Below are positions 6,865 to 48,562 of a stretch of DNA of 64,000 nt, piece after piece. Every line of letters begins with the position of its first letter. Positions within the stretch are counted from its first letter, which is position 1. Both the position numbers and the translations under genes were made by a program. The notes below the pieces were generated by a model. The model was not told the origin of the DNA and made no database searches. It worked only from the letters and a program-made list of their open reading frames with translations. This DNA comes from Armatimonadota bacterium (GTDB taxonomy: Bacteria; Armatimonadota; Zipacnadia; Zipacnadales; JABUFB01): contig JABUFB010000003.1 in assembly GCA_013314775.1 (NCBI GenBank), forward strand, positions 106,622 to 170,621, written 5' to 3'.

Positions 6865-7043
6865 CTAGGGAGACGGGCAGAGCTGTTGAGGGCGCAGCCC
6901 TGCTGATAGTGGGGCTGCGCCTGTCGCTTTCTGGGAGGAGTGACGGCGGCCTAACCCCCCTCGGTCTCCATCTCCTTCGCGGCGACGGCAGCCGGTCCCG
7001 GGCGTGACACCCGCGTACGCCTTTGCGTCCACAGGACGCGTGG

Positions 7044-7290: not shown

Positions 7291-7389
7291 GGCAAAGCTA
7301 TCAGCACGGGAGCCGAAGTTCCTCAAGCACTCCGTGCGTCATCCCGAAGTAACAGACACGGAAACCTTCCGAGAAGGTGGAGGCGCAAC

Positions 7390-9966: not shown

Positions 9967-9994
9967 TAGCGCTCCCTGATCTTCTGAGCGGACG

Positions 9995-16609: not shown

Positions 16610-16617
16610 CGTCCAAG

Positions 16618-16710
16618 CGTCGCTAGGGGAGCCCACCCGGGCTGAGATAGCGGAGACCCCGCTGACCCTGGGAACCTGATCCGGTTAGTACCGGCGTAGG
16701 GAAGCGACAG
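16618..16710 (+). promoter_or_regulatory. TPP (THI-box) riboswitch
   Basis: Conserved THI-element blocks in order: GGGGAGCCC...GCTGAGA...ACCC...TGACCCTGGGAACCTGATCCGGTTAGTACCGGCGTAGGGAAG; followed by a GC-rich hairpin (ggcggccc / gggccgcc) and RBS AAAGGAG before thi4. Confidence 0.85.
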
Positions 16711-16803
16711 ACGAGCGCCTGATATGGGTCGCCGGCTGCATGCTTCCTCAAGATGCCGGCGGCCCTTTATTTTGGGGCCGCCGCACCGAAAGGAGCGGTC
16801 TCG

Positions 16804-28272: not shown

Positions 28273-28701
28273 CTAGACTGCGGAGCGATGGGAGAGAAGT
28301 ACGCTCTCGATCAGAGATTGCAGGCCACGGGGTTCGAAAGGCTTTGTCAGGAAAGCCAGCCCGTCGCCGGGAAGATCATCGATCGTCTCTTCGGTGGTCA
28401 GGACGACCATCGGGATCTCGCACGTCGCCTGATCTGTTCTCAACTGGTCCAGAAGACTGCCCCCGCCCGGAGCCAGCATCATAGAATCAAGCACAATCAG
28501 ATCTGGATGTTCGTCCTTTGCAAGCTCGATCGCCTGCTGTCCACTGCCTGCGATATCTGTCCGAAAGCCCTTCTGCCGGATCAGCAGGTCAAGAAGCCTT
28601 GCAAGACCTGGCTGCTCCTCGGCGATAAGGATTTTCGGGCGCGTCAATACATCGCCACCTCCTTTCGCCTCGCGACTGTTACCGCTGAATTTACTGGTCA
28701 T
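28273..28701 (-). CDS. stand-alone response regulator receiver domain (CheY-like)
   Basis: In frame with ORF 28273..28743 (TTG at 28743 or ATG at 28701). PKILIAEE, phospho-acceptor region DLIVLD, conserved Lys in FLTKPF. Confidence 0.65.
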   Translation of the reverse strand: MTSKFSGNSREAKGGGDVLTRPKILIAEEQPGLARLLDLLIRQKGFRTDIAGSGQQAIELAKDEHPDLIVLDSMMLAPGGGSLLDQLRTDQATCEIPMVVLTTEETIDDLPGDGLAFLTKPFEPRGLQSLIESVLLSHRSAV

Positions 28702-28871
28702 GGGTCCCCGCCCCTTTATCTTACCCACCAGTCTGTCGAACAAACGACGCCGCTAATGATAGCACAGACTGCAAGGCAGTGCCACCAGGGAATCCGGAAG
28801 CAGAGGCCTTTCCATGGCGCCCAGCGCCGGCAGGTCATCGGCATTCGGGGTGCGAATACTGCCTGCAAGAC

Positions 28872-29726
28872 ATGACCGTAAAATCCCCCACCGGACGATT
28901 GGTTGCCTACCTGCTCCTGGTCCTCGGATCGGTCGCCTTTCTGTTCCCTCTGGTTTGGATGATCTCCACCTCCCTCAAGCCCATCGAGGAGACCATGCGG
29001 GTGCCACCGGTCTGGATCCCCTCCACGATCCAGTGGCGCAACTACGCCGACGCTGTAACCTACGGCAGCGACAAGCTCGGCTACATCCCCTTCCTGCGCT
29101 ATGCCGTGAACACCCTGTATCTCGCGGTTCTGGGGGTCATCGGCACTGTGCTTTCCAATGCCCTCGTGGCCTACGGGTTCGCGCGCATCAACTGGAAGGG
29201 CCGGGACATCGTCTTTGCCATCGCACTCGCGACCATGATGGTGCCCTTCCCTGTGACCATGGTCGCGGTCTTTGCGATCTTCCGCGAACTGGGGTGGATC
29301 GGGACATTCCGGCCGCTCTGGGTCCCCGCATTCCTGGGCAGCGCCTTCAATATCTTTCTCCTGCGCCAGTTCTTCTTGAGCATCCCTCGGGAGCTTTCCG
29401 ACGCCGCGCGCATCGACGGCTGCTCGGAACTGGGGATCTTCCGCCATGTAGTTCTGCCTTTGTCGAAACCCGCGCTGGCGGTGGTTGCGCTGTTCCACTT
29501 CCTTTATGTCTGGAACGACTTCCTGGGCCCGCTGATCTACCTGACGGACCAGAAGATGTTTACCTTGTCATTGGGCCTGCAGTTCTACCAGAGCCAGCAC
29601 GGCGGCACGGAATGGCACATGCTGATGGCCGCCTCTTCGATCGTGGTCCTGCCGCTGATTGTCCTGTTCTTTTTTACCCAGCGGCAGTTCATCCAAGGGA
29701 TCACGATGACGGGACTGAAGGGGTAG
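28872..29726 (+). CDS. carbohydrate ABC transporter permease (MalG/UgpE-like)
   Basis: In frame with ORF 28779..29726; start set at ATG 28872. EAA-loop region LSDAARIDGCSELGIFRHVVLPLSKPAL; six predicted TM segments. No ATPase or binding protein adjacent. Confidence 0.8.
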   Translation: MTVKSPTGRLVAYLLLVLGSVAFLFPLVWMISTSLKPIEETMRVPPVWIPSTIQWRNYADAVTYGSDKLGYIPFLRYAVNTLYLAVLGVIGTVLSNALVAYGFARINWKGRDIVFAIALATMMVPFPVTMVAVFAIFRELGWIGTFRPLWVPAFLGSAFNIFLLRQFFLSIPRELSDAARIDGCSELGIFRHVVLPLSKPALAVVALFHFLYVWNDFLGPLIYLTDQKMFTLSLGLQFYQSQHGGTEWHMLMAASSIVVLPLIVLFFFTQRQFIQGITMTGLKG

Positions 29727-29730
29727 AGAG

Positions 29731-30356
29731 GCTGGCGTCCCGCGCTGGCGCCCCGGGTTGACGCCCCGGGTTGAAACCCGGGGCTAGGGGCCTTCGGCCG
29801 GGCGTCCTGCGGACGGGCTTTCCTGTCCCGCGCTGGCGCCCCGCGCTGAAGCACGGGGCTGTGGGCCTTCGGCCGTGCGTCCTACGGACGGGCTTTCCCG
29901 TCCCGCGCTGACGCCCCGCGCTGAAGCACGGGGCTGTGGGCCTTCGGCCGGGCGTCCTGAGGGACGCGAAGATTGACGCCCCGGGTTGACGCCCCGGGTT
30001 GAAACCCGGGGCTAGGGGCCTTCGGCCGGGCGTCCTGAGGGACGCGAAGGCTGAGCGTCCCGCTCGACAGGCCGTTCGCCGTTGCCGTCCAGCCCCGAAG
30101 GGGCGTCAGTCTCTTGCCACCAGCGTAAGCTGGTGGAATCAGGCCCCCATCGAGATTATAAGAGCCCCCGAAGGGGGCGGCAGAAACCCGAGCTCCGCCT
30201 GCGGGGGCGTCGATGCCCCGCGCTGACGCCCCGCGCTGAAGCACGGGGCTGTGGGCCTTCGGCCGTGCGTCCTGCGGACGGGCTTTCCTGTCCCACGCTG
30301 GCGCCCCGCGCTGAAGCACGGGGCTGTGGGCCTTCGGCCGGGCGTGCTGCGGACGG
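29731..30356. repeat. GC-rich multi-hairpin repeat array, locus 2
   Basis: Shuffled modules: gccccgcgctgaagcacggggc, ggccttcggcc (UUCG loop), ccccgggttgaaacccgggg, ccaccagcgtaagctggtgg (GNRA loop), gagcccccgaagggggc. Lies between convergent gene ends. Confidence 0.8.
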
Positions 30357-30437
30357 TATGGCGGACACGAGTGCCAGATCAGGCCCACAGACATACGATC
30401 ACGGCCATTGTGCGTCTGGCTGAGCCGGTCACCCCCC

Positions 30438-31787
30438 TCACATTCCCGGGTACAGCGTGTTGTTGTAGTGCGTCGGGATTGCCAGCGGTCTCGCGTTGGC
30501 GTAGATGCACGCGCCCCGGGAGCCGAACAGAATCACCTCGTCGCGGCTGTCGCCCCACACATCGGCCCGGGTGCAGTAGAAATGGGCGCGGCGGTCTTCC
30601 TCGCTGCGGTCCGGGGTACACTGCATCGGCAGCGTGTCCATGATCTGTCCCTGGCCGTCGTAGATCGCCACGCTCTCCCCCGGCCCGCGGGCATACACCA
30701 GCACCCCGTCGGTCCCGTCGCCCATCCAGTTCACCGCGATGCAGGCCGCGTACCAGCCCCCGGCCGGCTGCTCTCGACGCCAGATCTCGGCGCCCTGCGG
30801 GTCATAGAGGTAGAGGGTGGCCGAATCACGCTGTCCATCGGCGCGGGGCTGCCCGCGGTCGATCACCGCATACTGGAGTTCGGAGTCGTGCCGGAAGCGT
30901 CCTGCCACCACATGCTGGGCTTCGGCGAGAGGGTGGCCCCACAGTTCGGACCCGTCCGGGCGCAGGCAGTGGATGCCGTGGTTGCCGAAAAGCAGGTTCC
31001 AGCTTCCATCGGCGCGCCGGACCGAATACGCGGCGTCCTGGTGAGCGCCTCGTGGGTCGTGGCTGAAGAGCACCGTCCCGTCGTGGTCGATAAGCGCGAA
31101 GCCCACGAACACCTCGTCGCGGCCATCATTGTCCGTATCGCACAGGGCCGGGAAATGCCCGGTGGACCCCGCCCATTCCCAGAGCACCTCGCCCTCGTGA
31201 GACACGCCCCACATGGTCCAATAGCGGTCTTTCACCACGAGGTCCGCGCGACGTCCGCGCCCTGTCAGGTCGGCGAAGAGGAAGCAGTCGTCCGCCGGTG
31301 CGGGCAGGTCGAAGCCGCCCTTCTCCTCGCCTGTCTGCGCGTCGAGGACCATCATGCGCGCCTTGCCCTCGTACCGCGTGGCGCGCTCCCGGGCCCAGCT
31401 TGCGTTCGTGTCCCATTCCGCGTACGTGGCCTGGCGGACATAGAGGACCTCATTGCGCCCGTCGGCGTCCCAGTCGTAGACCTGCACCGGGAGATCGGCG
31501 TAGATTTCGCCATTATCGGCGGAGTGGACGCCCTTCTGCCAGAGTATCTCGCCGGAGATCGTGGTCGCGGTGAGGCAGGTGATCTCCCGGGTGGCGCGGA
31601 TGCTCTGGACGAACAGCAGGTCCGGCGCACCGTCGCCGTTGAGATCACCCACGCGCACGGTCTCCGCGCCGAAATCCCGGACGTCGATGAGGCTGACGAG
31701 GTGGTGGGTCATGGGGTTCTTCTCCTGGGCACGGGCGAGTGTGCACGCAAGGGTGCAGGTGAGCAGGAGACAGGTTGCGCGGGTCAT
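30438..31787 (-). CDS. secreted FG-GAP/VCBS-like beta-propeller protein
   Basis: In frame with ORF 30438..31931; start set at ATG 31787 giving signal peptide MTRATCLLLTCTLACTLARA. Repeated DxDGDG-type motifs (DLNGDGAPDL, DWDADGRNEV, DTDNDGRDEV). Confidence 0.6.
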   Translation of the reverse strand: MTRATCLLLTCTLACTLARAQEKNPMTHHLVSLIDVRDFGAETVRVGDLNGDGAPDLLFVQSIRATREITCLTATTISGEILWQKGVHSADNGEIYADLPVQVYDWDADGRNEVLYVRQATYAEWDTNASWARERATRYEGKARMMVLDAQTGEEKGGFDLPAPADDCFLFADLTGRGRRADLVVKDRYWTMWGVSHEGEVLWEWAGSTGHFPALCDTDNDGRDEVFVGFALIDHDGTVLFSHDPRGAHQDAAYSVRRADGSWNLLFGNHGIHCLRPDGSELWGHPLAEAQHVVAGRFRHDSELQYAVIDRGQPRADGQRDSATLYLYDPQGAEIWRREQPAGGWYAACIAVNWMGDGTDGVLVYARGPGESVAIYDGQGQIMDTLPMQCTPDRSEEDRRAHFYCTRADVWGDSRDEVILFGSRGACIYANARPLAIPTHYNNTLYPGM

Positions 31788-31825
31788 GTTGTCTGTCCTT
31801 TCAGCGTCCTGAGAAACCTCGACCC

Positions 31826-34800
31826 TTACCTCCCCTGCAATTCGCGCCGCATCTGCACGTTCGTTGGCCTGCCCGCGGGAACCGGGCGCTGGAAGCCCTC
31901 GGGGAGCACGTACAACTCGTGTACAGACCACCAGTAGTAGCTGTCCCAGCCGGTCTGGATGATGAGCACGAAGCGCGCGTCCACGGGGGCGAACTCGCAG
32001 CGCCAGATGCCATGCCGCACGCTGCGCCGGGACGCGCCCTCTTCAGCCCGGGCCACGGTCTCCCAGGTCTCCCCATCCGGGGAAACCCGCACTTCGTAGC
32101 CGCGAGGGTAGTCCAGCTTCGACCGCGCGATGTCCAGCCAGATGCCCTGAACGCGTCGGCTCTCTCCGAGATCGACCTGAAGCCAGTCGCCGGGTCGCAT
32201 TGCACGGCCTGTAGTCCAGCGGGTCCCGGTTTCGCGGTCAATTGCGGCGGCGGTGTCGGTCTCGGATGCCTGACGATTGCCGGGCACCCCGGCTGTAAGG
32301 GTCCAGCCGTCGGGTTTGAGGCCCGGGTGGATGTCGGGTGAAGGAGCGGCGACCCATCGCACCTGTTTCGAGACGGGATACGGTGCAAGGACCCTGATGT
32401 AGCGGGAGAGGTCCAGCACCTGCCCCGCCTCGACGCGGAATTCGGAGGCAAGGCGGATCGGCCGGGTCTTGCCGTCTCGCGCGATCTGGCGGATGGTGAC
32501 GTCGCAGTCCTCGAAGGTCTTCAGGATGGACAGTGTGAGCTTGCCGGACCGAGGCGAATAGTCCACCTGTCCCCAGAATCCCGGGAGGAATACGGGGCAG
32601 TGCAGTTCGGTCTCGGCTGAGAATGTGCGGGGCGAAATGAAGAGCGTCCGGCCGGGCGCATCCAGGGAGAGGCCTGTGAGGGCATTCAGCACATGCCAGG
32701 AGGTGGGGCAGGTCATGTAGCTGCGCAGTCCGCCCTGTCTGCCGCCAGGGGCGTCGTAGACGAGGGACTGGTCCCACGGGCTCTTGTTTTGCTCCCAGGC
32801 GCAGTGGTACACCCGGCGCAGAACCTCCAGCCCGTCGTCCACATAGCCCCGGTAGATGCTCTCGCAGCCCAGGTAGGGCTCATGCTGCAGGAGGAAGCAT
32901 GCGCTGGTAGCACTTTGGCCTTCCGCGGTAACTTCCATGGGCGGCACCGGGAAGAAGGGCTTGAGATGCCGAGCGATGAGCTGGTGTACCTCGCGCTCGG
33001 CGATGCCCGGGGGAAGGGTGTCACCCAGCCCGCAGATATGCGCCAGCCAGTCCCCTGCGAGAGCAGCCACGAAGCTGTTGGGGTTCTTGGCATCGCTTCG
33101 AGCCGACCGCCACTTGATGAAGTACTCGCCATTCCACAGGCGTTCCATCACCGCCGCCTGGAGTGCAGTGAACCTGGACCGGTACTCGTCCGCGAGGGCT
33201 GGTTCGGCCTGCACGCGGGCCACCTCCTCCGCCGCCAGGAGCGCGCCCAGAGTGCAGCTTGCGGAGTAGATAAATGCCCCGCGCGGAAGTTGCTCGTAGT
33301 CGTAGGTGCTGCCGCCTTCGGGGATGAGATCACCGTCTTCATCGGCACTCTGCAGCCAGTCGATGGCTTCCCGCACGTGTGGCCACATGTGGTCCAGGAA
33401 GGTTCGGTCGCCGGTCCAGCGGTAGAGCTTGAGCACCTGCATGATCCAGGAGGCCGACAGGTCCGGCCAGTCCGTGATGCCGTAGCCCACCCGCGGGTCG
33501 CCGATGACCTCGTGGAAGTTGCCGTTGAAGTGGGTGATGCGCCCGTCTTCCTGCTGGCAGTCGGCGAACAGCCGCAGTTCGCTCTCATCCAGTTCGGGGA
33601 ACATCTGCACATAGAAGGCATGAGCGGCCATGCGCTGGTCCATGGTGCCCAGCGCGCCACCCATGTCGATGGGGCTCTCCAGGACCGCGAAGCGCCCGTC
33701 CCGGGTGAGCACCGTGGCCGAGTACATGGTGAAAGCGCAGTTGATGAGCTTCAGCTTGAGCCAGAAGGGCAGGTTGGACTCGAGCACCACGTCCTGCCAT
33801 TCCCGGGTCTGTTCCAGGAGGCGCTCGCGCCGCGCCACCGCGTAGTTCACCAGGGAATCGATCTCCGGGAACTGCTCCAGGAAGTAGTGGCCGACGTCGG
33901 TCTTGCGCACCAGCTCCCGCGCCTCCTGCAGGCGCGCGGATGAGGAAGCGCGGGAGAGGTCCACCTTGCCGCCGGGGGTGTGCACCGTCAGCTCGTGGAT
34001 GGACCAAAACCAGAACTCCTGGCTTTCGAGGTTGGTAATGCGGATATACCGCGCCGGCGTAGGCTCGAAGGCGATGTCCAGGATCGCCTTGACCTGCTGC
34101 TTCCCGGCTTCCGCGCAGGTGGCCTCGGCCGCAATCGCCCACTGCTCCGGGGTCTCGGCCAGTTCGACGCGGTAGCCCAGGGGATAGTCGGAAGGGGATG
34201 GGCTCGAGTCCAGGGTCAGGCCGGACACGGTCTCCACGCGCCCAAGGTCCACGGTGAACTGGTCGCCCGCGCGCTTCTCGCGACCGGTAGACCAGCGTGA
34301 AGATAAGTCGCGGTCGAAGGCCGCGCGTCCCGCGTCTTTCGCAGGGGCGAGTTCGCCCGAGTATTCCCGCACCCTGTGCTCCATGCGGAAGGTGGGCATG
34401 TGCCAGGCAATCAGGAAATGCAGTCGCCGCGCCTCACCGGGCTCAAGGGTGACTGAGGCCGAGACCACCGCGGCAGAACTGTGGACCCGAGACCTTTGGG
34501 GCTCGCATTCCGGCCTGCCCGTCTCCACGAAACTGTCCCACCAGGGGATAGATGACCTATCGGCATCCCACTCGCTGCAGGTGGCCACGGTCACACCCTC
34601 GCCCAGTTGTACGCCTGCGAAGTGGGTGCCGATGGTATTCTGGCGCATGTCGTCGAAGCTCTCGGTGCTGGTGAACAGGATGCCCGCGCAATCGTCCCCC
34701 GTCCAAGGCGTCTGCTCGCGGCCGGAAGCGAAATCCCAGGGGACGTCCTTGCGCCCGCCGAAACCCACGAGGTTTTCCCATGAGAGCGCGAGGGACACTT

Positions 34801-35305
34801 GGGCAACCTGGGCACCGGGATTGGTCACAGTGAAGTCCAGGAAGGCCACGGGGAGTGAGGAGTCCCGCACATTGCGAGGGATCAGGGGAGAGTGGGCGTG
34901 GAGGCTTACGGTTACCGGGAGACCATCGTCTTGGAAGGCCAGTTCGGCGCGGGGGTACAGGCCGAGATAGCGGGTGTGGGCGATGTTGGTGACCGTTTCG
35001 TACTCGCGGTCCCAGGTGCCCCGCAGGATTCTCGCAGCTTTCATGCCGTTGGTCTCGCAGCGCACCGCGGCGAAGCTGCCACGGAGGACCCCGGTGGGCC
35101 GGTCCCAGTTGTGGTTCGTGGTCGCGTTGCCGAAAGCGCCGTCGGTGAGGAGTTCGATTGCGCCGCAGCCGATTCCCCCCAGTGGCACGCCGGACCGCCA
35201 CCGCGCATCGCGGATCTGGCCGGTTGAGGAGTCGAACTCCGCCTGGGCCTGCAGTATGACGGTCAACGCGAGGGCAAGGGCAAGGGCTGCACTGAGCCTG
35301 TTCAT
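31826..35305 (-). CDS. GH116-like six-hairpin glycoside hydrolase with two F5/8 type C (discoidin) domains
   Basis: In frame with ORF 31826..36544, trimmed to ATG 35305 (signal peptide MNRLSAALALALALTVILQA); upstream codons are antisense to the beta-helix gene. PLGGIGCGAIEL resembles the GH116 N-terminal motif. Confidence 0.65.
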   Translation of the reverse strand: MNRLSAALALALALTVILQAQAEFDSSTGQIRDARWRSGVPLGGIGCGAIELLTDGAFGNATTNHNWDRPTGVLRGSFAAVRCETNGMKAARILRGTWDREYETVTNIAHTRYLGLYPRAELAFQDDGLPVTVSLHAHSPLIPRNVRDSSLPVAFLDFTVTNPGAQVAQVSLALSWENLVGFGGRKDVPWDFASGREQTPWTGDDCAGILFTSTESFDDMRQNTIGTHFAGVQLGEGVTVATCSEWDADRSSIPWWDSFVETGRPECEPQRSRVHSSAAVVSASVTLEPGEARRLHFLIAWHMPTFRMEHRVREYSGELAPAKDAGRAAFDRDLSSRWSTGREKRAGDQFTVDLGRVETVSGLTLDSSPSPSDYPLGYRVELAETPEQWAIAAEATCAEAGKQQVKAILDIAFEPTPARYIRITNLESQEFWFWSIHELTVHTPGGKVDLSRASSSARLQEARELVRKTDVGHYFLEQFPEIDSLVNYAVARRERLLEQTREWQDVVLESNLPFWLKLKLINCAFTMYSATVLTRDGRFAVLESPIDMGGALGTMDQRMAAHAFYVQMFPELDESELRLFADCQQEDGRITHFNGNFHEVIGDPRVGYGITDWPDLSASWIMQVLKLYRWTGDRTFLDHMWPHVREAIDWLQSADEDGDLIPEGGSTYDYEQLPRGAFIYSASCTLGALLAAEEVARVQAEPALADEYRSRFTALQAAVMERLWNGEYFIKWRSARSDAKNPNSFVAALAGDWLAHICGLGDTLPPGIAEREVHQLIARHLKPFFPVPPMEVTAEGQSATSACFLLQHEPYLGCESIYRGYVDDGLEVLRRVYHCAWEQNKSPWDQSLVYDAPGGRQGGLRSYMTCPTSWHVLNALTGLSLDAPGRTLFISPRTFSAETELHCPVFLPGFWGQVDYSPRSGKLTLSILKTFEDCDVTIRQIARDGKTRPIRLASEFRVEAGQVLDLSRYIRVLAPYPVSKQVRWVAAPSPDIHPGLKPDGWTLTAGVPGNRQASETDTAAAIDRETGTRWTTGRAMRPGDWLQVDLGESRRVQGIWLDIARSKLDYPRGYEVRVSPDGETWETVARAEEGASRRSVRHGIWRCEFAPVDARFVLIIQTGWDSYYWWSVHELYVLPEGFQRPVPAGRPTNVQMRRELQGR

Positions 35306-35494
35306 CGCGGACCCCCTGGACCCGAAATCGCGCACGAGCGGCTCGGCGCCCTCACTGCCTTCGGGAGGTGCCGGGCCGGCAGTCGCGGCATATTCTCCAC
35401 AGGAATGCGGTTCGCAGTTGCAGGGCAGAGTTCCTTCCCTGCGGCTCACGCTGGAGACCTGACGGATGCCGTTCCGATGCAGGGGAGCCCTTTG

Positions 35495-37354
35495 ATGATC
35501 ACGCCACCAATGGCCGGGCTGTGCATAGTGCTGGCCCTGACTACTATTGCGGCCGTGGCCGATCCAGCCGCGGAGGACACCGCCGTGCGCCGATTCCACG
35601 CGCGTGACTACGGAGCCTTGCCGGGTGCTTATGCCGATGCGGGACCAGGGATCGGCGCCGCTATCGCGGCTGCGATTGACTGCGGGCAGCCCGCCGAAGT
35701 CGTGCTCGAAGCGGGCACATATCGCCTGGGGAGGCCCCCTGCCGGCGACCATGCCGTCAGGATTGCGAACGCCCGGGACCTCACCATCCGGGGCAGCGAT
35801 CCGGGCACTGAACTCATCATCACGGACCCGGAGACTGGCGGCTTCAGCCTGTCCGGCTGCCTGCGCACGACAGTGCGAAACCTCACCCTCGACTATGACC
35901 CGCCGCCTTTCGCCCAGGGGACGATCACGGCGGTTGACCTGGACGCGCAGACCTACGACCTGCAGGTGGACGAAGGTTTCATCGAGCCTGACCACGCGGC
36001 TTTCCAGAATGCGAAGGCGGTCTGGGGGCTGGTGGTGCGGCCCTTGGAGGGCACCGGCGATACGCGCTTCGGGCCCACGGCGATCCCGGCGGTCATCGAC
36101 AGCAAGATCGGGCCGCGGCACTGGCGCATGAAGATCGGCGGCCCTCCCACCGGATACCCTGAACCCCTGCGCAATTCGGGCATGAAGCCCGGAGACCGCT
36201 TCGTCCACGCCGCGCGGAACTACACGGCAGCTTTCGGGGCCAGCCATTGCGATGACCTGATCTTCGAGAACCTGACACTCCACAGTTCGCCCGGACTGGC
36301 ATTCCTGCCATACCTTTGCGGCAAGGTGACCATCCGCAATTGCCACGTCCTGCGTCGCGAGGGCTCCGGGAGGATGCTGTCCACCAATGCTGACGGGGTC
36401 CACTGCCGGGGTTGCCGGAAGGGCATCACCATTGACGGCTGCAGCTTCGAGGGCATGGCCGACGACGGCATCAACATCCACAGTTCCGCGATCCCGGTGC
36501 TGGAGGTCATTTCGCCCGCGGAACTGGTGCTGCAGCGGTCTCATTACACGCTGCTCGTGGGGGACCTTCTGGAGGGCATGGACGTGGATACCGCCAGCGT
36601 GCTGGGGCAGGCAAGGGTGCTTTCGGTTGCGGAGTTACCCGACCGCTGGGCTTACCGTGTTGCTCTCGACGCCCCGATTGATGGCCTGCGCGCGGGAGCG
36701 AGTGTGGAGGATGCCGATTGCCTGTACAATCTGTCTGAAAGCGGCACAGGTTCGGTCATCACCGACTGCCATTTCCGCTGCTTCCGGGGGAGAGGGATAC
36801 TGCTCAGCGCCACCGGGGTGAGGGTCTCCGGGAACCTGTTCGAGGTGATGGAGGGCTGGGGCATCTCGCTCAACCACGAGAGCACCCGCTGGGCCGAAGG
36901 CCCCCTGGCGCGGGATATTGAGATCATCGGGAACACCTTCAACGGCAAAGGTGGCTACATGCCCGCGATCTTCCTGTACTCGCAGCAGCGCGACGGGAAG
37001 CTCTCCAGCGCCCGCGCGATCCACAACCTGCTCATCCAGGGCAATCTTTTCCGGGACCTGGGCACTCCGGCCATTGAGCTGCGAGCCTGCCGTGGAGTGC
37101 GGATCATCGACAACCGCATCGAGACTGGCGAGGACACGCGGCGGCCCCGGGCGAAATATGATTCCATTCTCGTGGACAATTGCGCAGAGGTGGCGATACG
37201 GGGGCTGAAGGTGCGTGACCTCGACCCGCGCCATCTTTCGGCGATCGCGATAACCGCAGCCACGGACCCGGGCGATGCGGGCGTGGTGATAGAGGGCCTG
37301 GACACCGAGATCGCGCTGTCATCGACCCCGGTTAGGGACCAGCGCGGCGAGTGA
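35495..37354 (+). CDS. secreted right-handed parallel beta-helix protein (pectin-lyase fold; hydrolase or lyase)
   Basis: In frame with ORF 35405..37354; start set at ATG 35495 before the hydrophobic segment. Periodic beta-helix rungs (ITIDGCSFEG, VITDCHFRCF, LIQGNLFRDL, RIIDNRIETG). Confidence 0.65.
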   Translation: MITPPMAGLCIVLALTTIAAVADPAAEDTAVRRFHARDYGALPGAYADAGPGIGAAIAAAIDCGQPAEVVLEAGTYRLGRPPAGDHAVRIANARDLTIRGSDPGTELIITDPETGGFSLSGCLRTTVRNLTLDYDPPPFAQGTITAVDLDAQTYDLQVDEGFIEPDHAAFQNAKAVWGLVVRPLEGTGDTRFGPTAIPAVIDSKIGPRHWRMKIGGPPTGYPEPLRNSGMKPGDRFVHAARNYTAAFGASHCDDLIFENLTLHSSPGLAFLPYLCGKVTIRNCHVLRREGSGRMLSTNADGVHCRGCRKGITIDGCSFEGMADDGINIHSSAIPVLEVISPAELVLQRSHYTLLVGDLLEGMDVDTASVLGQARVLSVAELPDRWAYRVALDAPIDGLRAGASVEDADCLYNLSESGTGSVITDCHFRCFRGRGILLSATGVRVSGNLFEVMEGWGISLNHESTRWAEGPLARDIEIIGNTFNGKGGYMPAIFLYSQQRDGKLSSARAIHNLLIQGNLFRDLGTPAIELRACRGVRIIDNRIETGEDTRRPRAKYDSILVDNCAEVAIRGLKVRDLDPRHLSAIAITAATDPGDAGVVIEGLDTEIALSSTPVRDQRGE

Positions 37355-37381
37355 CAGCCCCGCGCAACCAGGAGGTTCGCC

Positions 37382-38194
37382 GTGTTCGAGTCATTCAGCG
37401 AGTGGCATCCGGTTGTACAGGCGCTCCTCGCGGGGCTGCTTACCTGGGGCCTTACCGCCTTTGGCGCCTCCGGAGTCTTCCTGGCGAAGCAGCCGAGTCG
37501 CAAGCTGCTGGACGGCATGCTGGCTTTCGCGGCGGGGGTGATGATTGCGGCAAGCTACTGGTCGCTGCTGTCGCCTGCCATCGAGATGGCCGCGGCCGGG
37601 CCACTGCCCTCGTGGCTTCCGCCTGCCGTCGGCTTCCTGCTTGGAGGCGCTGTACTGTACGGTGTAGACAAGCTCCTGCCCCACGTGCACCCAGGGCTCG
37701 CGACACAGGACGCTGAGGGCATACACACGACCTGGCGGCGCACGACGCTGCTCATCCTCGCCATCACCCTGCATAACATTCCCGAAGGCCTCGCAGTCGG
37801 CGTTGCCTTCGGAGCAGCGGCGGCAGGGCTTCCCGAAGCCAGCCTCACCGGCGCTACGGCTCTTGCTCTCGGTATCGGCATCCAGAACTGCCCCGAGGGC
37901 CTTGCGGTGTCCATGCCGCTGCGTCGCGAGGGCATCTCACGCCGACTCAGTTTCTTCTATGGACAGCTCTCCGCGGTTGTGGAGCCGGTCTCAGCGGTCA
38001 TCGGTGCGGCCATCGTGCTTGTGGCCCAGGCGATCCTGCCCTACGCACTGGCCTTCGCGGCCGGGGCGATGATCTTCGTGGTCGTGGAGGAGCTGATCCC
38101 GGAGTCCCAGAACGGTGGGTATCGAGACGTGGCCACCGGCGGCGTGATGATCGGATTCGTGGTGATGATGATCCTGGACGTGGCGCTGGGGTAG
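37382..38194 (+). CDS. zupT: ZIP-family zinc transporter ZupT
   Basis: ORF track (GTG start, RBS AGGAGG). [10 protein letters not shown] and [10 protein letters not shown] metal-binding motifs. Confidence 0.85.
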
Positions 38195-38230
38195 GGAAGG
38201 CAAACTCCGGGGGACGGGAGAGAGTGAGCC

Positions 38231-39319
38231 ATGAGGATTCAGCGGATCGAGACCTATACAAGCGGAGCCATCAGCGTGGTCCGCGTGGTTACGGAGGACG
38301 GCTCTGAAGGCTTCGGGCAAATGGCGCCCTTCAACGCGGACATATCTGCACTGGTGTTCCACCGGCAGGTCGCTCCCGTCGCGCTGGGAGCGAATGCCCT
38401 CGAGATCGACGCCCTTGCAGCGCGGGTCATGGAGGCGAACTACAAGTTCCCGGGCAGCTACGTGCGCCGCTCCTTCTCGGGCCTGGACACGGCCCTGTGG
38501 GACCTGCGTGGAAAGCTGGAAGACAAGCCTGTCTGCGAGCTGCTCGGGGGAACTCCCGGGCCGGTGCCCGTGTACGGGTCCAGCATGCGCCGGGATATTT
38601 CGCCGGAACACGAAGCCGCGCGCATGGCGCGGTTACGCGACGACCAGGGCTTCCGCGCCTTCAAGCTGCGCATCGGCAAGGTCAATGGGCACAATCAGGA
38701 CGAGTGGCCGGGCCGGACCGAAGCCCTGGTTCCCACCGTGCGCAGGGTCGTTGGCGACCGCGTTGCGCTGCTCGTGGACGCCAATGGCTGCTACACCGCG
38801 CAGAGAGCCATCGAAGTCGGGTACATGCTGGAGGCGAACGGGGTCGTGCACTTCGAGGAGCCTTGCCCTTACTGGGAGTACGAGTGGACGGCACAGGTCG
38901 CCGAGTCCCTGCAGGTTCCCGTGGCGGGTGGCGAGCAAGACTGTTTCCTGCACCAGTGGCGGCGGATGATCGCCATGCGCGCGGTGGACATCGCCCAGCC
39001 GGACGTGTGCTATGTGGGCGGCGTCGCGCGGCTCATGCAGGTGGCGCGTATGGCGGCTGACGCCGGGCTGGTGTGCGTGCCCCATGCGGCGAACCGTTCC
39101 ATGCTGCAGGTCTTCACCATGCACTGCTTGCGGGCGATGCCCAATGCCGGCCCATTTATGGAATACTCCATCGAGCCGCAGGACTCGATGACGGGCATCT
39201 ATGACCCCATGCCCCGGGCGTACGGCGGCGAAGCAGAGTTCCCGGAGGGACCGGGCTGGGGCATCACGGTTCGGCCGGAATGGCTGGAGGCGGCTGACCG
39301 GCAGGTGTCGGAGGCGTGA
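38231..39319 (+). CDS. enolase-superfamily enzyme (mandelate racemase / muconate lactonizing family; sugar-acid dehydratase-like)
   Basis: ORF track. N-terminal capping domain then barrel with FKLRIGK, LLVDANGCY, FEEPC, AGGEQD. Confidence 0.8.
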   Translation: MRIQRIETYTSGAISVVRVVTEDGSEGFGQMAPFNADISALVFHRQVAPVALGANALEIDALAARVMEANYKFPGSYVRRSFSGLDTALWDLRGKLEDKPVCELLGGTPGPVPVYGSSMRRDISPEHEAARMARLRDDQGFRAFKLRIGKVNGHNQDEWPGRTEALVPTVRRVVGDRVALLVDANGCYTAQRAIEVGYMLEANGVVHFEEPCPYWEYEWTAQVAESLQVPVAGGEQDCFLHQWRRMIAMRAVDIAQPDVCYVGGVARLMQVARMAADAGLVCVPHAANRSMLQVFTMHCLRAMPNAGPFMEYSIEPQDSMTGIYDPMPRAYGGEAEFPEGPGWGITVRPEWLEAADRQVSEA

Positions 39320-39334
39320 CCGCCACCCTCCCGC

Positions 39335-40082
39335 GGCGGGCTCGCGTAAGCCGACCGTCCCGGTCGGCGGGTGTCATTGGAGTCGAGCGGGACGCTCGAC
39401 CTTCGCGTCCCTAAGGACGCCTGGCCGAAGGCCCCTAGCCCCGTGCTTCAGCGCGGGGCATCAATTCGGGGCACCGACTCAACCCGGGGCATCAACCCGG
39501 GGCGTCTGCCGCCCCCTTCGGGGGCTCTTATGATCTCGAAGGAGGGGCCTGATTCCACCAGCTTACGCTGGTGGCAAGAGGCTGACGCCCCTGCGGGGCT
39601 GGACGGCGAACGGCGAACGGCCTGTCGAGCGGGACGCTCGACCTTCGCGTCCCTCAGGACGCCTGGCCGCAGGCCCCTAGCCCCGGGTTTCAGCGCGGGG
39701 CGTCGATCCGGGGCATCGACGTCGCGTCCGGCAGGACGCCCGGCCGAAGGCCCCTAGCCCCGTGCTTCAGCGCGGGGCGTCGATCCGGGGCGCCTGCCGC
39801 CTCCTTCGGGGGCTCTTATGATCTCGAAGGAGGGGCCTGATTCCACCAGCTCACGCTGGTGGCAAAGGGCTTCCGCCCCTTCGGGGCTGGACGGCGAACG
39901 GCGAACGGCCTGTCGAGCGGGACGCTCCGCCTTCGCGTCCCTCAGGACGCCTGGCCGCAGGCCCCTAGCCCCGGGTTTCAACCCGGGGCGTCAACCCGGG
40001 GCATCGACGTCGCGTCCGGCAGGACGCCCGGCCGCAGGCCCCTAGCCCCGGGTTTCAGCCCGGGGGCATCCCGGTCGGCGGC
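39335..40082. repeat. GC-rich multi-hairpin repeat array, locus 3 (inverted relative to locus 2)
   Basis: Same modules as locus 2 in reverse-complement orientation, e.g. ctgccgcccccttcgggggctcttatgatctcgaaggaggggcctgattccaccagcttacgctggtggcaagag; a ~230-bp block is internally duplicated. Confidence 0.8.
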
Positions 40083-40086
40083 TGCG

Positions 40087-43000
40087 CTACGGCACCAACC
40101 GCACCGTTCCGTGCAGCCGGCCCTGAAGGTCCAGGCTCACCACCGGGCCGTCCACGGTCGCCGAGTTGGTCTCCCGCGACTGCTCCAGCAGGTTGCACGA
40201 CTCCGCCCGGCTGAAGGGCAGGTTGCAGGTGATCCGCGCCGTTCCTCCCACCCCTGCCGAGTTGTAGACTCGCGCGATGAACCCGTTCCCGTCTTCAGCG
40301 AGCTTGAAGGCTGACAGGATCATCTCCGCCGGCTCCACCCGGACGAAGGAGTAGGCAGACGGGAGCGTCCCGGGATGGGAGTCCACCACCCGCGCGATGG
40401 GCGGCTGGTTGAACTCCAGGGCGCGCCGGGGGACTTCCCCGTGACGCCAGTCGCCCTGGTGGGGCATGATCGCGAAGCGGATGCGATGGGTCCCCAGGTC
40501 AGGCATGGGGTCCGGGTCATACGAGGCGCGCAAAAGGGACATGCGCATGACATTGCCCTTGACGTCGAACCCATACTTGCAGTCATTGAGCAGCGCCAGG
40601 CCCCAGTTGGTCTCGTAAGTCACGCTCTCGGTGAAGGCGAAGCCGAAAAGGTGGAGGTTTGGCTCTTTGGGCAGGACAATGCCCTTGACCGGTCTTGAGG
40701 GGTCCAAAGGAATGCGCTGGAGCCAGATGTGAACGGGGGGTTCGGCCCTGCGACCGTCCGCGTAGCGGTGGTCGAGCCGGAAGGCCGTGGTCTCCCGTGA
40801 GCCGGGCCCGAAGCACCAGTCGCTGAACTCCAGCACTGCCGGCGCGCGGGTCCCGTCCTCGTACAGGAGCGTTGCCGGGCCACCGTGCCGGCCGTTGGAG
40901 CTTGCCCCGAACACTCCCAGCGCGGGCGCGGATTCCGCGGGCCACTCGATAGTCTGCCCCTCTGCGCGGATGGAGTTGAGCGCGCCCTTCTCAACCGGCG
41001 GCACAATCAATGGGACGCCGTCCGCCCGGGCATCTCCGGTGGGGAGGATCTCCGCCGGGTATGAGCGGTTCCCGTTGTCGAAGTCCCCGTCATTGGTGTC
41101 ATCGGTCCCGGCGAACACGTCCTCATTGAAGAACCGGGACACATCGATGGCCTTTGCGTCGCGCCCGCCTTCGGGGACCACGCGCCTTGCCTGCGCGAGG
41201 TCGATCCACTTCTGTGCGGGGACCTCGTGGCCGTCTGCGGCGCGCTCGATGCTGCCCCAGGGGATTTCGAAAGTTGCCCGGGGACTGTCCACGCTGGTCT
41301 TGAAGGCGGCTTTCAGGAAGGGTCCGCCATCCCGGGCATTGCCAAGTTCCCGCCAGTCCGCAAGCATGTCGAACTCCACGCGCTGCAGAGATTCGTACAT
41401 CGAGACCTGCACGTCGAAGGTGGACTGACCGTAGGCGTAGGATGCGACGAAGCGAGTGCACACATCCCCCTTTGACTCCAGCCGCACGTCCTTGAGCTCC
41501 AGCGTCTCAGTCTTCGTGATCGGCCCTATATTCCACGCCGACATACCGTGCGGGGCCTCATGGAGCATCTCCAGGAGGAATCGGGCGCTGATGTCGGGGC
41601 TGTGTCGGTGCTCCCAATTCATGGGGATTCCCTGAGCCTTCATGCTCGCCACTTGCTCGTCCGTGATGCTTTGTGTGCTCGGGTCGCTCCAGGGCTCCCG
41701 GACAGGCCCGGACGTGATGTGGAACACCGCGTAGCCCAGCGCCGGCAGGTCGGCGATGAACTCTACGGTGGTCGCGAAAGCCTCGCCGTCGGGTTTGGAG
41801 TTGATCACCTGCGCCGGAAGCGCCTTGCCTTCGGTGTCCGTCACGATGGCGCCGGGCCAGGGGCCCGGCGTGCGAAGCACCACCGCCACCCGGTCCTTGC
41901 GATCCCAGGCCACCGGGTTCCAGACCACCACCGCCTGCCCCTCTCCCCGGGTGTCGATCTGCGCGCAGAGGGCTTCCAGCGACTGGTCAATGGCGCTGTC
42001 CGCGACTTCACGCGTCTGCTCATACAGCTCTTTCGAATACTCATAGGACCCGTGTATAGCGCTGCCGGGGAGGATGTCGTGGAACTGGTTGAAGCACGTG
42101 TTGCGCCAGGCCCGGGTGAGACCCTCCCGCGGGTACTCCGGGCCCCATTTGGCGGCAATCGCTGACAGGGCTTCGGCAATGGGCAAAATGTTCTCGCTAT
42201 CCCGGTTCCAGCGCTTCACGTCCGAGTGGGTGGTGTAACAGCCCTCGAAGGTGAAGTTCAGTTCGTCCTTCACAATGGGCAAGTCACCCTTTGAGTGTTC
42301 CAGGGCCGCGGTGAAGTAGTCCTCGGTGGCCGCGAACTGGATGTTGGGAAAGAGCGGGTCCGCTTGCAGAGCCTTGGCGGCCTCAATGTCCTGGCGCGTG
42401 GGGCCGCCGCCGTGGTCGCCCACGCCGTAGACAATCATGCAGGCCGGGATGCCGACGCGGTCCTCAATCTCCAGGGGCACCACGCCCCGGTCGCGCCGGA
42501 ACTCCTCGTTGTACCAGCGGTGGTTGTATGCCAGGAGCCTGCCGCCGTCGGGGCCTTCCCACCAGAAGGTGGGCAGGCCCTTGCCCGCGCGGCAGAAGTA
42601 GAAGTGCTCATAGCCCGCGTCCGAGAAGATGCTGGGGACGGTCCAGGCGTGGCCGAAGTTGTCGGGCAGCCAAACCAGTCTGCTCTGCTGGCCGAAGCGG
42701 GATGTGTAGTAATGGTGAACGAGAAGACACTGACGCGCCAGGGCCTCCCCGGACGCCATGTTGGTGTCGCCCTCCACCCAGCTTGCCCCGGCGGGTTCCC
42801 ACTGCCCCCGCGCCACCGCCTCCTGGATGCGCGCGAAAAGCTCGGGGCATTCCTCCTCGATGGCAATGTATGCGCCCGGCTGGCTCTGTGTGAAACGGAA
42901 CTCGGGGTATTCGTCCATGAACTTCAGCGCCTGATCCCAGGTCAGACGGCAGACCGTCTTGGTCTCGGGCCACAGCCAGAGCCAGTTCATGTCGATGTGC

Positions 43001-43758
43001 GCGTGGCCCACGAGGAAAATGGTGTACTGCTTTGCCAGCTGCGAGAACGGCGTCAGTGCGGCGAGGCATTTGTCCAGGGACGCCTCGAAGGCCTTCGGAT
43101 CGCGCCGTGAGATGGCGTCGAAGTCGATCATGCCCGCAGCGGCGTCAAGGGTTCGCAGGTACTCGGCGCGCTTGTCGACCATGCGTTTGGAGTCGAGAAG
43201 GCGCTTGCAGAACTGAAGCCGCGCCGCCCACTCTCCGGCAGGTTCGCGGAAACTCTCCAGGGCCTCGTAGTCCAGCCGCGCCCAAAGGAGCCTGCCCGGA
43301 CCGCCCTGGTTGATGGCCCGGATCGCTACCACGATCTCCTGACCGGGCTGGGCGTCTTCCGTGAGCACCGCCCTGCCCTGGTCCCAGTGAAATCGACCCA
43401 CGTTCCTGCCGTTGACATAAAGGTCCATGTCGTCATCCACGGCGCAGGTGAGGACCAGTCGGGACCCCTCAACCGACACGCCGCCCACGGTCTGTGGGAT
43501 TACGACGCGCTTGCGGTACCAGGCGGACGTGTTCGGGAACTCCCACCCGTGCTCGGGGCGCACGACCTGCCAGGCGCTGTCGTCGAGATCGGGCGCTTCG
43601 CCGCCGGGCTGTGCGGGATGCGCGAATCGCCAGTCTCCTGCGTCGGTGACGCTGATGGCCTGCAAATTGGCCAGTACGCGATCCACGGACTGCTGCGCGA
43701 TACAGAGCGAAGCCGGCAAGGCGAAGCAGACAGCGAGCAGGGCGGCCAGGCGATGCAT
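40087..43758 (-). CDS. GH38 alpha-mannosidase
   Basis: In frame with ORF 40087..45051, trimmed to ATG 43758 (RBS GGAGGAG; signal peptide MHRLAALLAVCFALPASLCIA). GH38 motifs HAHIDMNWLW, LPDNFGH, NQFHDILPGS. Confidence 0.85.
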   Translation of the reverse strand: MHRLAALLAVCFALPASLCIAQQSVDRVLANLQAISVTDAGDWRFAHPAQPGGEAPDLDDSAWQVVRPEHGWEFPNTSAWYRKRVVIPQTVGGVSVEGSRLVLTCAVDDDMDLYVNGRNVGRFHWDQGRAVLTEDAQPGQEIVVAIRAINQGGPGRLLWARLDYEALESFREPAGEWAARLQFCKRLLDSKRMVDKRAEYLRTLDAAAGMIDFDAISRRDPKAFEASLDKCLAALTPFSQLAKQYTIFLVGHAHIDMNWLWLWPETKTVCRLTWDQALKFMDEYPEFRFTQSQPGAYIAIEEECPELFARIQEAVARGQWEPAGASWVEGDTNMASGEALARQCLLVHHYYTSRFGQQSRLVWLPDNFGHAWTVPSIFSDAGYEHFYFCRAGKGLPTFWWEGPDGGRLLAYNHRWYNEEFRRDRGVVPLEIEDRVGIPACMIVYGVGDHGGGPTRQDIEAAKALQADPLFPNIQFAATEDYFTAALEHSKGDLPIVKDELNFTFEGCYTTHSDVKRWNRDSENILPIAEALSAIAAKWGPEYPREGLTRAWRNTCFNQFHDILPGSAIHGSYEYSKELYEQTREVADSAIDQSLEALCAQIDTRGEGQAVVVWNPVAWDRKDRVAVVLRTPGPWPGAIVTDTEGKALPAQVINSKPDGEAFATTVEFIADLPALGYAVFHITSGPVREPWSDPSTQSITDEQVASMKAQGIPMNWEHRHSPDISARFLLEMLHEAPHGMSAWNIGPITKTETLELKDVRLESKGDVCTRFVASYAYGQSTFDVQVSMYESLQRVEFDMLADWRELGNARDGGPFLKAAFKTSVDSPRATFEIPWGSIERAADGHEVPAQKWIDLAQARRVVPEGGRDAKAIDVSRFFNEDVFAGTDDTNDGDFDNGNRSYPAEILPTGDARADGVPLIVPPVEKGALNSIRAEGQTIEWPAESAPALGVFGASSNGRHGGPATLLYEDGTRAPAVLEFSDWCFGPGSRETTAFRLDHRYADGRRAEPPVHIWLQRIPLDPSRPVKGIVLPKEPNLHLFGFAFTESVTYETNWGLALLNDCKYGFDVKGNVMRMSLLRASYDPDPMPDLGTHRIRFAIMPHQGDWRHGEVPRRALEFNQPPIARVVDSHPGTLPSAYSFVRVEPAEMILSAFKLAEDGNGFIARVYNSAGVGGTARITCNLPFSRAESCNLLEQSRETNSATVDGPVVSLDLQGRLHGTVRLVP

Positions 43759-44008
43759 GGGAGCTCCTCCGGGTTGCGCGGGTTCAATGGCGCACAGAGT
43801 TGGATTCGGCACCCATCGCGGCTTTCCTGCGTGGTGGATCTTTGTGGCTCGGGCCGATCTTGCGCACATGCTGTGGGAATCGTTCCGTCGATGGGGTATG
43901 ATGGCCGGGTGACGATGGGTGGCGGTGCCGGCACCACGGCACACCAGGCGGAGTTTGGTGTGGCACCCACCCGTTGGCCAGCCAGGAGCATAGCAGGAGG
44001 CCCGTGCC

Positions 44009-44647
44009 TTGACCACTGACAGCCAGAACCGTTTCGACCGTGCCGCCGCAACCTGGGACCTCAATCCGCAACGTATCCAGCTTGCGATGACCACTGCGGA
44101 CGCCATCCGCGAGGCCGTGCCCGTCGGGCCGCATATGACCGCGCTTGAGATCGGCTGCGGTACCGGACTGGTGACGTATCCCCTCAGTGCGCATCTGAAG
44201 TCGATCCTCGCTGTGGACACGTCCGAGGAGATGCTGAAGATTCTCGGGGAGAAGATGGCCCAGCTGGGCGTCAGGAATGTGACGCCTCTCAAGGCGGATC
44301 TGACCCGAGACGACCTGCCCGACAGCGACTTCGACCTGATCTTCAGCGCCATGGCAATGCACCACATCCCGGACCCGGCCGGGATGATCCGGCGCGTAGC
44401 GGGACTGCTGAGACCTGGCGGCGCCCTTTGCATTGTGGACCTGGACTCCGAGGACGGAACCTTCCACGGGGACTCGGAGGCGGTGTACCACCATGGCTTC
44501 GGCGCTGAGGAGATGCAGGGGTTCTTCGCACAGGCGGGGCTGGTGGAGTTGAGGTCAGAGACGGTGCATGTCTTCGAACGCCCGGGCGCAGACGGTGTGT
44601 TACGGGAATACGGTGTGTTGATGACTGTGGGGAGAAAGGCGGGGTAG
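44009..44647 (+). CDS. class I SAM-dependent methyltransferase
   Basis: ORF track (TTG start, RBS AGGAGG). Motif I LEIGCGTGL; ALCIVDLD. Confidence 0.75.
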   Translation: MTTDSQNRFDRAAATWDLNPQRIQLAMTTADAIREAVPVGPHMTALEIGCGTGLVTYPLSAHLKSILAVDTSEEMLKILGEKMAQLGVRNVTPLKADLTRDDLPDSDFDLIFSAMAMHHIPDPAGMIRRVAGLLRPGGALCIVDLDSEDGTFHGDSEAVYHHGFGAEEMQGFFAQAGLVELRSETVHVFERPGADGVLREYGVLMTVGRKAG

Positions 44648-44794
44648 AGGAGCAATTGCAGGCAACGCCTGCGGATCCCGCCCGGAGCTTGGCCTTCGCC
44701 AAGACCGGTGGCGCCCCGGCCCCTGGAAGGTCTCGCGACCTGTGCCCGGAATATCCTGCCACCTGCACCTCGCCGTCCCCCGGAGGAAACTGCC

Positions 44795-48107: not shown

Positions 48108-48261
48108 GCTGACAGCGGAAAGACTGAGAGCATCTTGGCTTACAGGCATCAGCGCGTTATCTTAGCAGCGGCCAGAGCGTGCCTGGACCTATCGAAGTCA
48201 GACGCTCTCTCTGTCCGGAATGAGTTCCGCCGGCCCTGGAGAGTTGGCATCTCGTTGGTGG

Positions 48262-48562
48262 GCCCTTTGCCTCACAGCCCGCGAAGCGGGCGACAGCTCA
48301 TAGCCGCGGGTGGAGTGGAGCGAAGCGGAACGGAGCCCGTGGAATCGGGGCACTTCAGGTCGCTTGAGCCCCCGGGGGGGGCGACAGAAATGATGAGAAC
48401 GCCGGGCGGTTGTGACGCCGGCTTCGCGGGCTGTTGTGGAAAGGCTCAAGGCAAAGGGCTGGCTGAACGCGGATTTGGGATTAGCCGGCACGCATCCAGG
48501 AGGACCGATGCTCTTTCGACGGCCTGTGAGTCTTGACACGCCCTGCACCTTGGCAATATACT
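48262..48562 (+). repeat. conserved promoter-proximal element, copy B
   Basis: cctcacagcccgcgaagcgggcgacag ... aATGATGAGAACgCCGGGCGGTTGTG ... caaagggc ... agccggcacg, as in copies A and C. Confidence 0.6.
48533..48562 (+). promoter_or_regulatory. sigma70-like promoter TTGACA-18-TATACT upstream of yceD
   Basis: -35 at 48533-48538, -10 at 48557-48562, ~60 nt before yceD. Confidence 0.5.

Follow-up and report, generated by a model that had tools for sequence, protein, structure and literature searches.

Inverted hairpin arrays around a carbohydrate gene block of an Armatimonadota bacterium: probable local amplifications of a REP/BIME-like repeat family

A 64,000-nt stretch of the genome of an uncultured Armatimonadota bacterium sampled from a deep aquifer (contig JABUFB010000003.1, assembly GCA_013314775.1; hereafter the window) contains two GC-rich hairpin arrays, A and B, that stand in inverted orientation 9 kb apart on either side of a block of five carbohydrate and transport genes. 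This arrangement raises the question of whether the arrays are the paired ends of one mobile or invertible segment, as a first-pass annotation of the stretch had suggested, or whether they arose separately. Our analysis favors the latter: the arrays probably arose when members of a dispersed, lineage-restricted family of extragenic palindromic repeats underwent local amplification in tandem, forming mosaics similar to those of repetitive extragenic palindromes (REPs) and bacterial interspersed mosaic elements (BIMEs). A search of the literature turned up no report of a REP family in Armatimonadetes; the family is new for Armatimonadota and extends mosaics of this type to the phylum. Nothing here would surprise a specialist in bacterial repeats and the finding is a fairly ordinary one, which nonetheless warns against taking inverted repeat arrays for island boundaries. 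The two arrays and their components are located as follows.

29731-30365, minus strand: array A, between the stop codons of an ABC permease gene (29726) and an FG-GAP gene (30438)
29758-29825, 29833-29900, 29908-29975, 29986-30053, 30223-30290 and 30298-30365, minus strand: the six X-G-P units of array A
~30084-30190: the one V-W-U composite of array A
39371-40068, plus strand: array B, a 698-nt insert missing from three relatives
39397-39464, 39639-39706, 39716-39783, 39927-39994 and 40004-40072: the five X-G-P units of array B
~39506-39600 and ~39794-39888: the two U-W-V composites of array B

The mirror symmetry of the arrays is extensive, as had been noted from the sequence. A repeat search of the window returned dozens (25+) of inverted pairs of up to 109 nt between A and B, two of which join 29975-30083 with 39897-40005 (109 nt, 96%) and 30084-30147 with 39544-39607 (64 nt, 97%). 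The composite module previously put at ~75 bp is present in both arrays as a ~70-nt module (CCACCAGCGTAAGCTGGTGG ... GAGCCCCCGAAGGGGGCGGCAG) at 30117-30186, with its reverse complement at 39506-39574 and 39794-39862. On a larger scale, a shared composite of ~255-290 nt occurs once in array A and as two tandem copies in array B, with pairwise identities of 92-94% in a three-way alignment that included A in reverse complement. Tandem Repeats Finder identified periods of 75 nt in array A and of 77 and 288 nt in array B, where the 288-nt super-unit extends over 39479-40070 in 2.1 copies. These copy numbers and the 92-94% copy identities are uncertain, since the array interiors belong to a nanopore-scaffolded metagenome-assembled genome (MAG; BioProject PRJNA414521) whose assembly combined Illumina data with MinION reads (SRR11854357) through npScarf and was then polished by Pilon (PMC7509429). 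Both arrays are sited between convergent gene ends, with the ABC permease gene and a glycoside hydrolase family 38 (GH38) gene on the outside converging on them, as the first-pass annotation had it. Its coordinates were right as to the presence of two arrays, but its start for the second, 39335, takes in hairpins that are kept in relatives lacking the array; the inserted array B is 39371-40068. The repeat search also revealed a third array of the family (7001-7290) that the annotation had overlooked.

We describe the repeat units in the orientation of the array B plus strand. The basic X-G-P unit is 71-77 nt long and consists of three hairpins, with units arranged head to tail. These hairpins are X (GCGTCC-N4-GGACGC, or the shorter CGTCC-N3-GGACG), G (GGCCGAAGGCC, followed by the linker CC-NNAG) and P (GCCCCGKGY-TTCA-RCSCGGGGC); P often leads into CGTC and one or two additional copies of its 13-nt 3' half. 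This half (CAACCCGGGGCRT on the array B strand) is tandemly duplicated beside several P hairpins (29749-29774, 29973-30002, 39479-39503 and 39978-40002); the duplicated halves give alternative pairing registers and look like a slippage footprint. The 21-nt core GGCCGMAGGCCCCYAGCCCCG, with two or fewer mismatches, occurs 15 times in the window compared with 0 times in 100 shuffles. Arrays A and B additionally hold the modules S (GTCGAGCG-GGA-CGCTCGAC), V, W (CCACCAGC-TTAC-GCTGGTGG) and U (GCCCCCTTCGGGGGC), none of which was found in the third array, C. Solo elements at 9985-10135, at 48255-48435 and on a metagenome contig (L013:1320-1470) can be aligned with the V-W-U composite and share with it a GC hairpin, the motif GWCAGC..T.GCC, a variable hairpin and GAGCCCCCGAAGGGGGCGRCAG. 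Since V-W-U also stands alone, A and B combine two repeat families in mosaic form.

The hairpin character of the units is well supported by comparison of copies. The hairpins X, G, P, S, U, W, V and T (the last a palindrome beside array B) have stems of 4-9 bp, and the proposed pairs of X, G and P are formed in 87.6% of cells across 17 copies, as opposed to 33-51% when the partners are slid. The earlier description of a short-hairpin mosaic of REP/BIME character is upheld. Loops of the UUCG and GNRA types, also described earlier, are present in some hairpins, UUCG in G, U and V on one strand and GUAA/GUGA in W on the other, but most of the remaining loops are UUCA/UGAA or 3 nt long. Two pairs of the P stem change together between sub-families (U-G/G-C, 9:6; C-G/U-A, 9:5), which represents few independent covariation events because the copies are related by descent. 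On both strands, arrays A and B are predicted to fold better than shuffles (z = -4.6 to -5.6; ~-406 to -464 kcal/mol), as would be expected of strings of palindromes.

Evidence that the family is dispersed comes from further copies within the window and beyond it. The additional loci of the window are as follows.

7001-7295, plus strand: array C, between co-directional genes (end of a purS-like gene at 6864, start of the next gene at ~7390)
9985-10135, plus strand: solo "family 2" element with the three-hairpin architecture of the V-W-U composite of A and B
48255-48435, plus strand: another solo "family 2" element, located 5' of yceD and over part of its length 87% identical to a stretch of metagenome contig L013

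Array C consists of one full X-G-P unit and, after it, 3.5 copies of a variant unit of 71 nt in which the G-P core is the same and the flanking hairpins are different. A covariance model of the unit placed X-G-P at three loci of the window only (A, B and C), with 15 units in 64 kb. At least five further loci were identified by BLAST and the covariance model on metagenome contigs that are otherwise unlike the window (L051, L058, L076, L013/L092 and L109/L120); a degenerate-pattern scan of such contigs had given at least 120 matches, mostly due to chance, from which the real ones were told apart by these two methods. The unrelated assemblies that carry the units include FWPV01, JGI and MTKY01 contigs. 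Two tandem units stand at the end of contig L051, and the units lie between co-directional genes on L076 and between convergent genes on L013/L092. Wherever open reading frames (ORFs) could be read all copies are intergenic, and none lies within a Pfam-supported gene. The scattering of modules over intergenic contexts, which the first-pass annotation had named as evidence against an association with the gene block, is thus largely what we observed: array C, the solo elements and the copies on unrelated metagenome contigs all lie elsewhere. In a collection of genome contigs that does not include the source genome, the 21-nt core gave five single chance matches only, in Streptomyces, Leptolyngbya and Fuscovulum, and a scan of viral contigs for the core gave no match. 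A diverged cluster, on L109/L120, has at least three units in mixed orientation within an ~800-nt intergenic region of a soil-metagenome contig (L109:1050-1650); it retains the X-G-P architecture and the conserved GGCCGCAGGCCC core with different stems, and the architecture therefore extends beyond the lineage of the window. The family 2 element itself is ~130-170 nt long, comprises three hairpins, ends in GAGCCCCCGNNGGGGGCGRCAG and has solo copies in two co-directional intergenic regions; it has no Rfam match.

Comparison with relatives provided direct insight into the origin of array B. Three contigs (L130, L131 and L132) from three other sequencing runs (SRR30119353, SRR35316941 and SRR8440705), taken from the 90%-identity cluster of the enolase protein, have ~87% nucleotide identity to the window, and the alignment runs to 39374 and resumes at 40070. 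In these relatives only 65 bp with two small hairpins separate the enolase stop from the convergent GH38 stop, which identifies array B as an insertion or expansion of 698 nt specific to this lineage. All three keep the GH116, beta-helix, ZIP, enolase and GH38 genes in the same order and orientation without array B. Of the structural variation across relatives that the first-pass annotation had envisaged, only presence or absence of array B itself was seen. The sequences at the junctions of array B are as follows.

39350-39370, plus strand: T palindrome, GCCGACC-GTCCC-GGTCGGC(GG), with one mismatch at the empty site of the relatives
40069-40081, plus strand: repeat of TCCCGGTCGGCGG, forming a 13-nt direct duplication at the closing end of array B

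The last 13 nt of the T palindrome (TCCCGGTCGGCGG, 39358-39370) recur at the far end of the array. In the junction alignment the relatives have a single ...CTGACCGCCCCGGTCGGCGGCTGTGCTACGG..., and the window has GCCGACCGTCCCGGTCGGCGG, the 698-nt array and then TCCCGGTCGGCGG-CTGCGCTACGG. Array B is thus bracketed by arms of the T palindrome and otherwise has no definable terminal inverted repeats. Exact copies of the palindrome number one in the window and one on L058, where the identical 17-nt sequence adjoins a unit with a degenerate T on its other side. This clean before/after pair, an empty site in three relatives and a 698-nt array with a 13-nt duplication in the window, could help to show how such repeats seed and grow. 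Two observations concern the surroundings of these sites. A small hairpin, CCGCC(A/G)CC-YTCCC-GCGGCGG, lies directly 3' of the enolase stop at 39320-39340 and is kept in relatives (L131:4277-4297); it is probably a native 3'-end hairpin older than array B. On L058, a fragment resembling an IS4/Tn5-type transposase by eye (1240-1581, ...WGIEIDHRILKSGCKIEE), with an in-frame stop, adjoins the X-G-P unit bracketed by T palindromes and may be an insertion sequence that inserted at the repeat.

The resemblance of the family to known repeat systems is general rather than one of shared sequence. BIMEs of E. coli and other enterobacteria combine short imperfect palindromes (~20-40 nt) with further conserved motifs in mosaic clusters, and their copy number varies between related genomes. 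Similarly, the repeats of the window are short, GC-rich, imperfect palindromes that form stem-loops, are extragenic, lie mostly after gene 3' ends between convergent (A and B) or co-directional (C) genes, and cluster as mosaics. Di Nocera et al. (2013, PMC3733652) located REPs chiefly between ORFs that converge or run in the same direction. The window unit differs in having three different hairpins in 71-77 nt, compared with one hairpin in the E. coli REP unit. By their tags and stems, the units fall outside the two established superfamilies. The GTAG superfamily carries an unpaired GTAG (GYAG/GTRG) at one end of the stem-loop; of this tag only the 3' AG is shared, with C or T directly before it in every copy but one. 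The CGTC superfamily is defined by a terminal CGTC, an 8-9 bp stem with A-T at positions 1-2, a 4-5 nt loop and a CCA tail (PMC3733652). In the window, CGTC follows the P stem (GGGG-CGTC) in nine of the 15 units and this stem is 9 bp long with a 4-nt loop, but it begins with G-C/C-G pairs and no CCA tail follows.

Other systems offer partial parallels. The GTAG-23 repeats of Thermomicrobium roseum, which has a GC-rich genome, are inserted within small GC-rich palindromes of the form CCGSSCC n3-4 GGSSCGG (PMC3733652); array B likewise adjoins CCGACCG-TCC-CGGTCGG, but the window family has a different sequence and no GTAG tag. Neisseria genomes contain large mosaic intergenic regions in which several repeat families, such as dRS3 and CGTC-1, are interleaved (PMC3733652), and here too families are interleaved and CGTC adjoins a palindrome. 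The dRS3 elements differ in being targets of phages and integrases, and nothing comparable was found in the window. With REPINs (REP doublets forming hairpins; Bertels and Rainey 2011, PMC3116915) and miniature inverted-repeat transposable elements (MITEs), the family shares non-coding structured repeats presumably mobilized in trans, presence/absence polymorphism and, at array B, a direct duplication. It differs from them in that the window has no inverted REP doublet that would form one long hairpin and the 13-nt duplication is found at one of the three arrays; MITEs are defined by terminal inverted repeats and a target-site duplication at each copy.

Several observations weigh against an interpretation as REP/BIME-like mosaics. 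The window units are head to tail, all those of any one array sharing one strand, whereas E. coli BIME units alternate in orientation; mixed orientation was seen only in the diverged L109 cluster. In place of GTAG, the four nucleotides that precede the P stem read CTAG, ACAG, CCAG, ATAG or AAAG. Arrays A and B share a long composite that has no counterpart in C and are mutual closest relatives in the window, a kinship that chance, gene conversion or local spread could each explain. No direct repeats of at least 8 nt flank arrays A and C, and their empty sites were not recovered in relatives; for array A, FG-GAP homologues have at most 76-78% identity and are non-syntenic, and relatives of the ABC permease (85-87%) are non-syntenic and without the family. 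A Pfam scan of ~30 window proteins, which did not cover the genes at ~51.8-64 kb, detected no transposase, REP-associated tyrosine transposase (RAYT, a Y1 transposase) or recombinase. Finally, the interiors of the arrays are nanopore-scaffolded, Pilon-polished sequence (PMC7509429), and the copy counts cover the 64-kb window and the matched metagenome contigs rather than the whole source genome.

The likeliest course of events for such a repeat family would begin with seeding by a hairpin-directed process, either single-strand transposition by some enzyme or template switching at stalled replication forks. Array B would have inserted in this lineage beside the pre-existing T palindrome, with distal duplication of 13 nt of T, and would then have grown by tandem duplication of the 288-nt super-unit. 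Growth may in general proceed by slippage or unequal exchange between the 71-77-nt and 288-nt periods, and repeats would accumulate where they are least harmful, downstream of converging genes. The inverted relationship of A and B would then reflect independent seeding at two convergent intergenic sites in opposite orientations, and the two would not be ends of one element. Should transcription from the converging genes run into the arrays, their very stable hairpins would shield mRNA 3' ends from 3' exonucleases and keep the convergent units apart, much as enterobacterial REPs do; a role of this kind is plausible.

Alternatively, the X-G-P unit could represent a novel type of non-autonomous mobile element that targets hairpins: it would insert at small palindromes like T, duplicating 13 nt, and would then be amplified in tandem. 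The conserved core GGCCGMAGGCC-CNNAG, kept while the flanking stems co-vary even on L109/L120, gives reason to consider this proposal, which we regard as doubtful. If true, it would imply a dedicated enzyme, RAYT-like or other, in the Armatimonadota class UBA5377 and its relatives.

Unlikely is the explanation that the arrays are primarily host-selected RNA elements, serving as bidirectional transcription barriers or 3'-end stabilizers for convergent operons. Their position between convergent gene ends and the extremely stable folding predicted on both strands fit such a role. In addition, G-U wobbles in P and X are confined to the strand in array B orientation. At A and B this strand is sense for the operons of the block, and at array C and on L076 it is sense for the upstream genes; this hints at an RNA-level constraint, from two informative loci only. 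Such functions have been reported for REPs of other bacteria (PMC3733652). However, close relatives have only 65 bp and two small hairpins at the array B site, so a long array is clearly not required, and a length of 600-700 nt is far beyond need. The units of array C and L076 lie upstream of a co-directional gene. The arrays also lack the combination of GC-rich hairpin and U-tract that characterizes intrinsic (Rho-independent) terminators: no hairpin in them is followed by a T-run, and the five terminator-like sites at 28500-41000 all lie outside the arrays, in a number below the shuffle mean.

The possibility that prompted our question, that A and B are the inverted terminal repeats of one mobile islet or invertible segment, involves the genes between and around them, which were identified by Pfam scans.

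28872-29726, plus strand: carbohydrate ABC transporter permease, with its 3' end abutting array A
30438-31787, minus strand: FG-GAP/RGL11-like protein of 449 aa, with its 3' end 73 nt from array A
31826-35305, minus strand: GH116-family glycoside hydrolase of 1159 aa with F5/8 type C domains
35495-37354, plus strand: right-handed beta-helix protein of 619 aa
37382-38194, plus strand: ZIP-family metal transporter
38231-39319, plus strand: enolase-superfamily (MR/MLE) enzyme, identical to NSW55037.1 from an Armatimonadota MAG
40087-45051, minus strand: GH38 alpha-mannosidase-like protein, start codon uncertain, with its 3' end abutting array B

The Pfam matches confirm the five bracketed genes (FG-GAP, GH116, beta-helix, ZIP and enolase superfamily) as first annotated. 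The inverted arrangement at a distance of 9 kb, with ~255 nt at ~92% identity including perfect stretches of tens of nucleotides, would be enough for RecA-dependent exchange, and judged from the sequence, recombination between these composites is physically possible. To the left of GH116 the relatives also differ, with an 818-aa gene on L130 in place of FG-GAP. Nevertheless, an islet or inversion bounded by the arrays is very unlikely. In the relatives without array B, the genes of the block run straight on into the outside GH38 gene, with order and orientation unchanged, and the right-hand "boundary" therefore lies inside ancestral synteny and is not the edge of an inserted or inverted unit. 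The third array and the solo modules lie elsewhere, the block (window GC, 64%) has the same GC content and GC skew as its flanks, and genes for carbohydrate-active enzymes occur on both sides of it. No recombinase or transposase emerged from the protein scan described above, and inversion of a block with its own divergent promoters would not obviously alter expression. The proposal that the arrays mark a mobile islet or inversion ends is not supported.

The gene content beside array A deserves a separate remark. On L130 (1-2454) an unrelated putative glycosidase of 818 aa or more takes the place that the FG-GAP gene (30438-31787) has in the window, directly downstream of GH116, and DNA homology between the two ends at the GH116 stop codon (window position 31842). 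This is a gene-content polymorphism, and nothing ties it to the array.

It is highly unlikely that the arrays, or their length and internal order, are artefacts of scaffolding with error-prone nanopore reads. The merging with npScarf and polishing with Pilon give some grounds for this concern, as do contigs of the Logan assembly of SRR6186653, an Illumina metagenome from a 2.8-km-deep aquifer borehole in Western Siberia (PMC7509429), in which window sequences are also present: these short-read contigs stop 40-50 nt into each array. The same contigs, however, independently reproduce A and B at precisely these junctions over their outer 40-50 nt. The units recur in unrelated assemblies, including the two in tandem on L051, and random read errors would not yield the well-formed hairpins seen all along the arrays. 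We also considered the Logan contig breaks as a sign of high genomic copy number and rejected this, since any repeated short k-mer breaks contigs and the arrays repeat internally. The arrays do explain why short-read assemblies break at these points in this lineage.

That the arrays are tandem small structured RNA genes or a degenerate array of the CRISPR (clustered regularly interspaced short palindromic repeats) type can practically be dismissed: the regular 71-77-nt period and the compact three-hairpin fold of each unit are suggestive, but the arrays have no Rfam match at the gathering threshold or even at E<=1, no tRNA or tmRNA by ARAGORN, no promoter-like sites and no unique spacers, the whole 71-77-nt or 288-nt period being repeated, and array B is missing from relatives.

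Two features of the window lie apart from the arrays. A thiamine pyrophosphate (TPP) riboswitch (RF00059, 76.8 bits) at 16615-16719 on the plus strand is directly 5' of a Thi4-family thiazole synthase gene (16723-17601). A gene at 691-1686 on the minus strand encodes a secreted protein without a Pfam match, whose central helical part resembles Spy/ZraP by eye and whose C-terminus is extremely cysteine-rich, metallothionein-like and tandemly duplicated (CTCPECAEGCKCCVGGECTCGPDCKCPCCAEGGACKCPGK, twice); this duplication accounts for the 150-nt DNA repeats at 813-1124.

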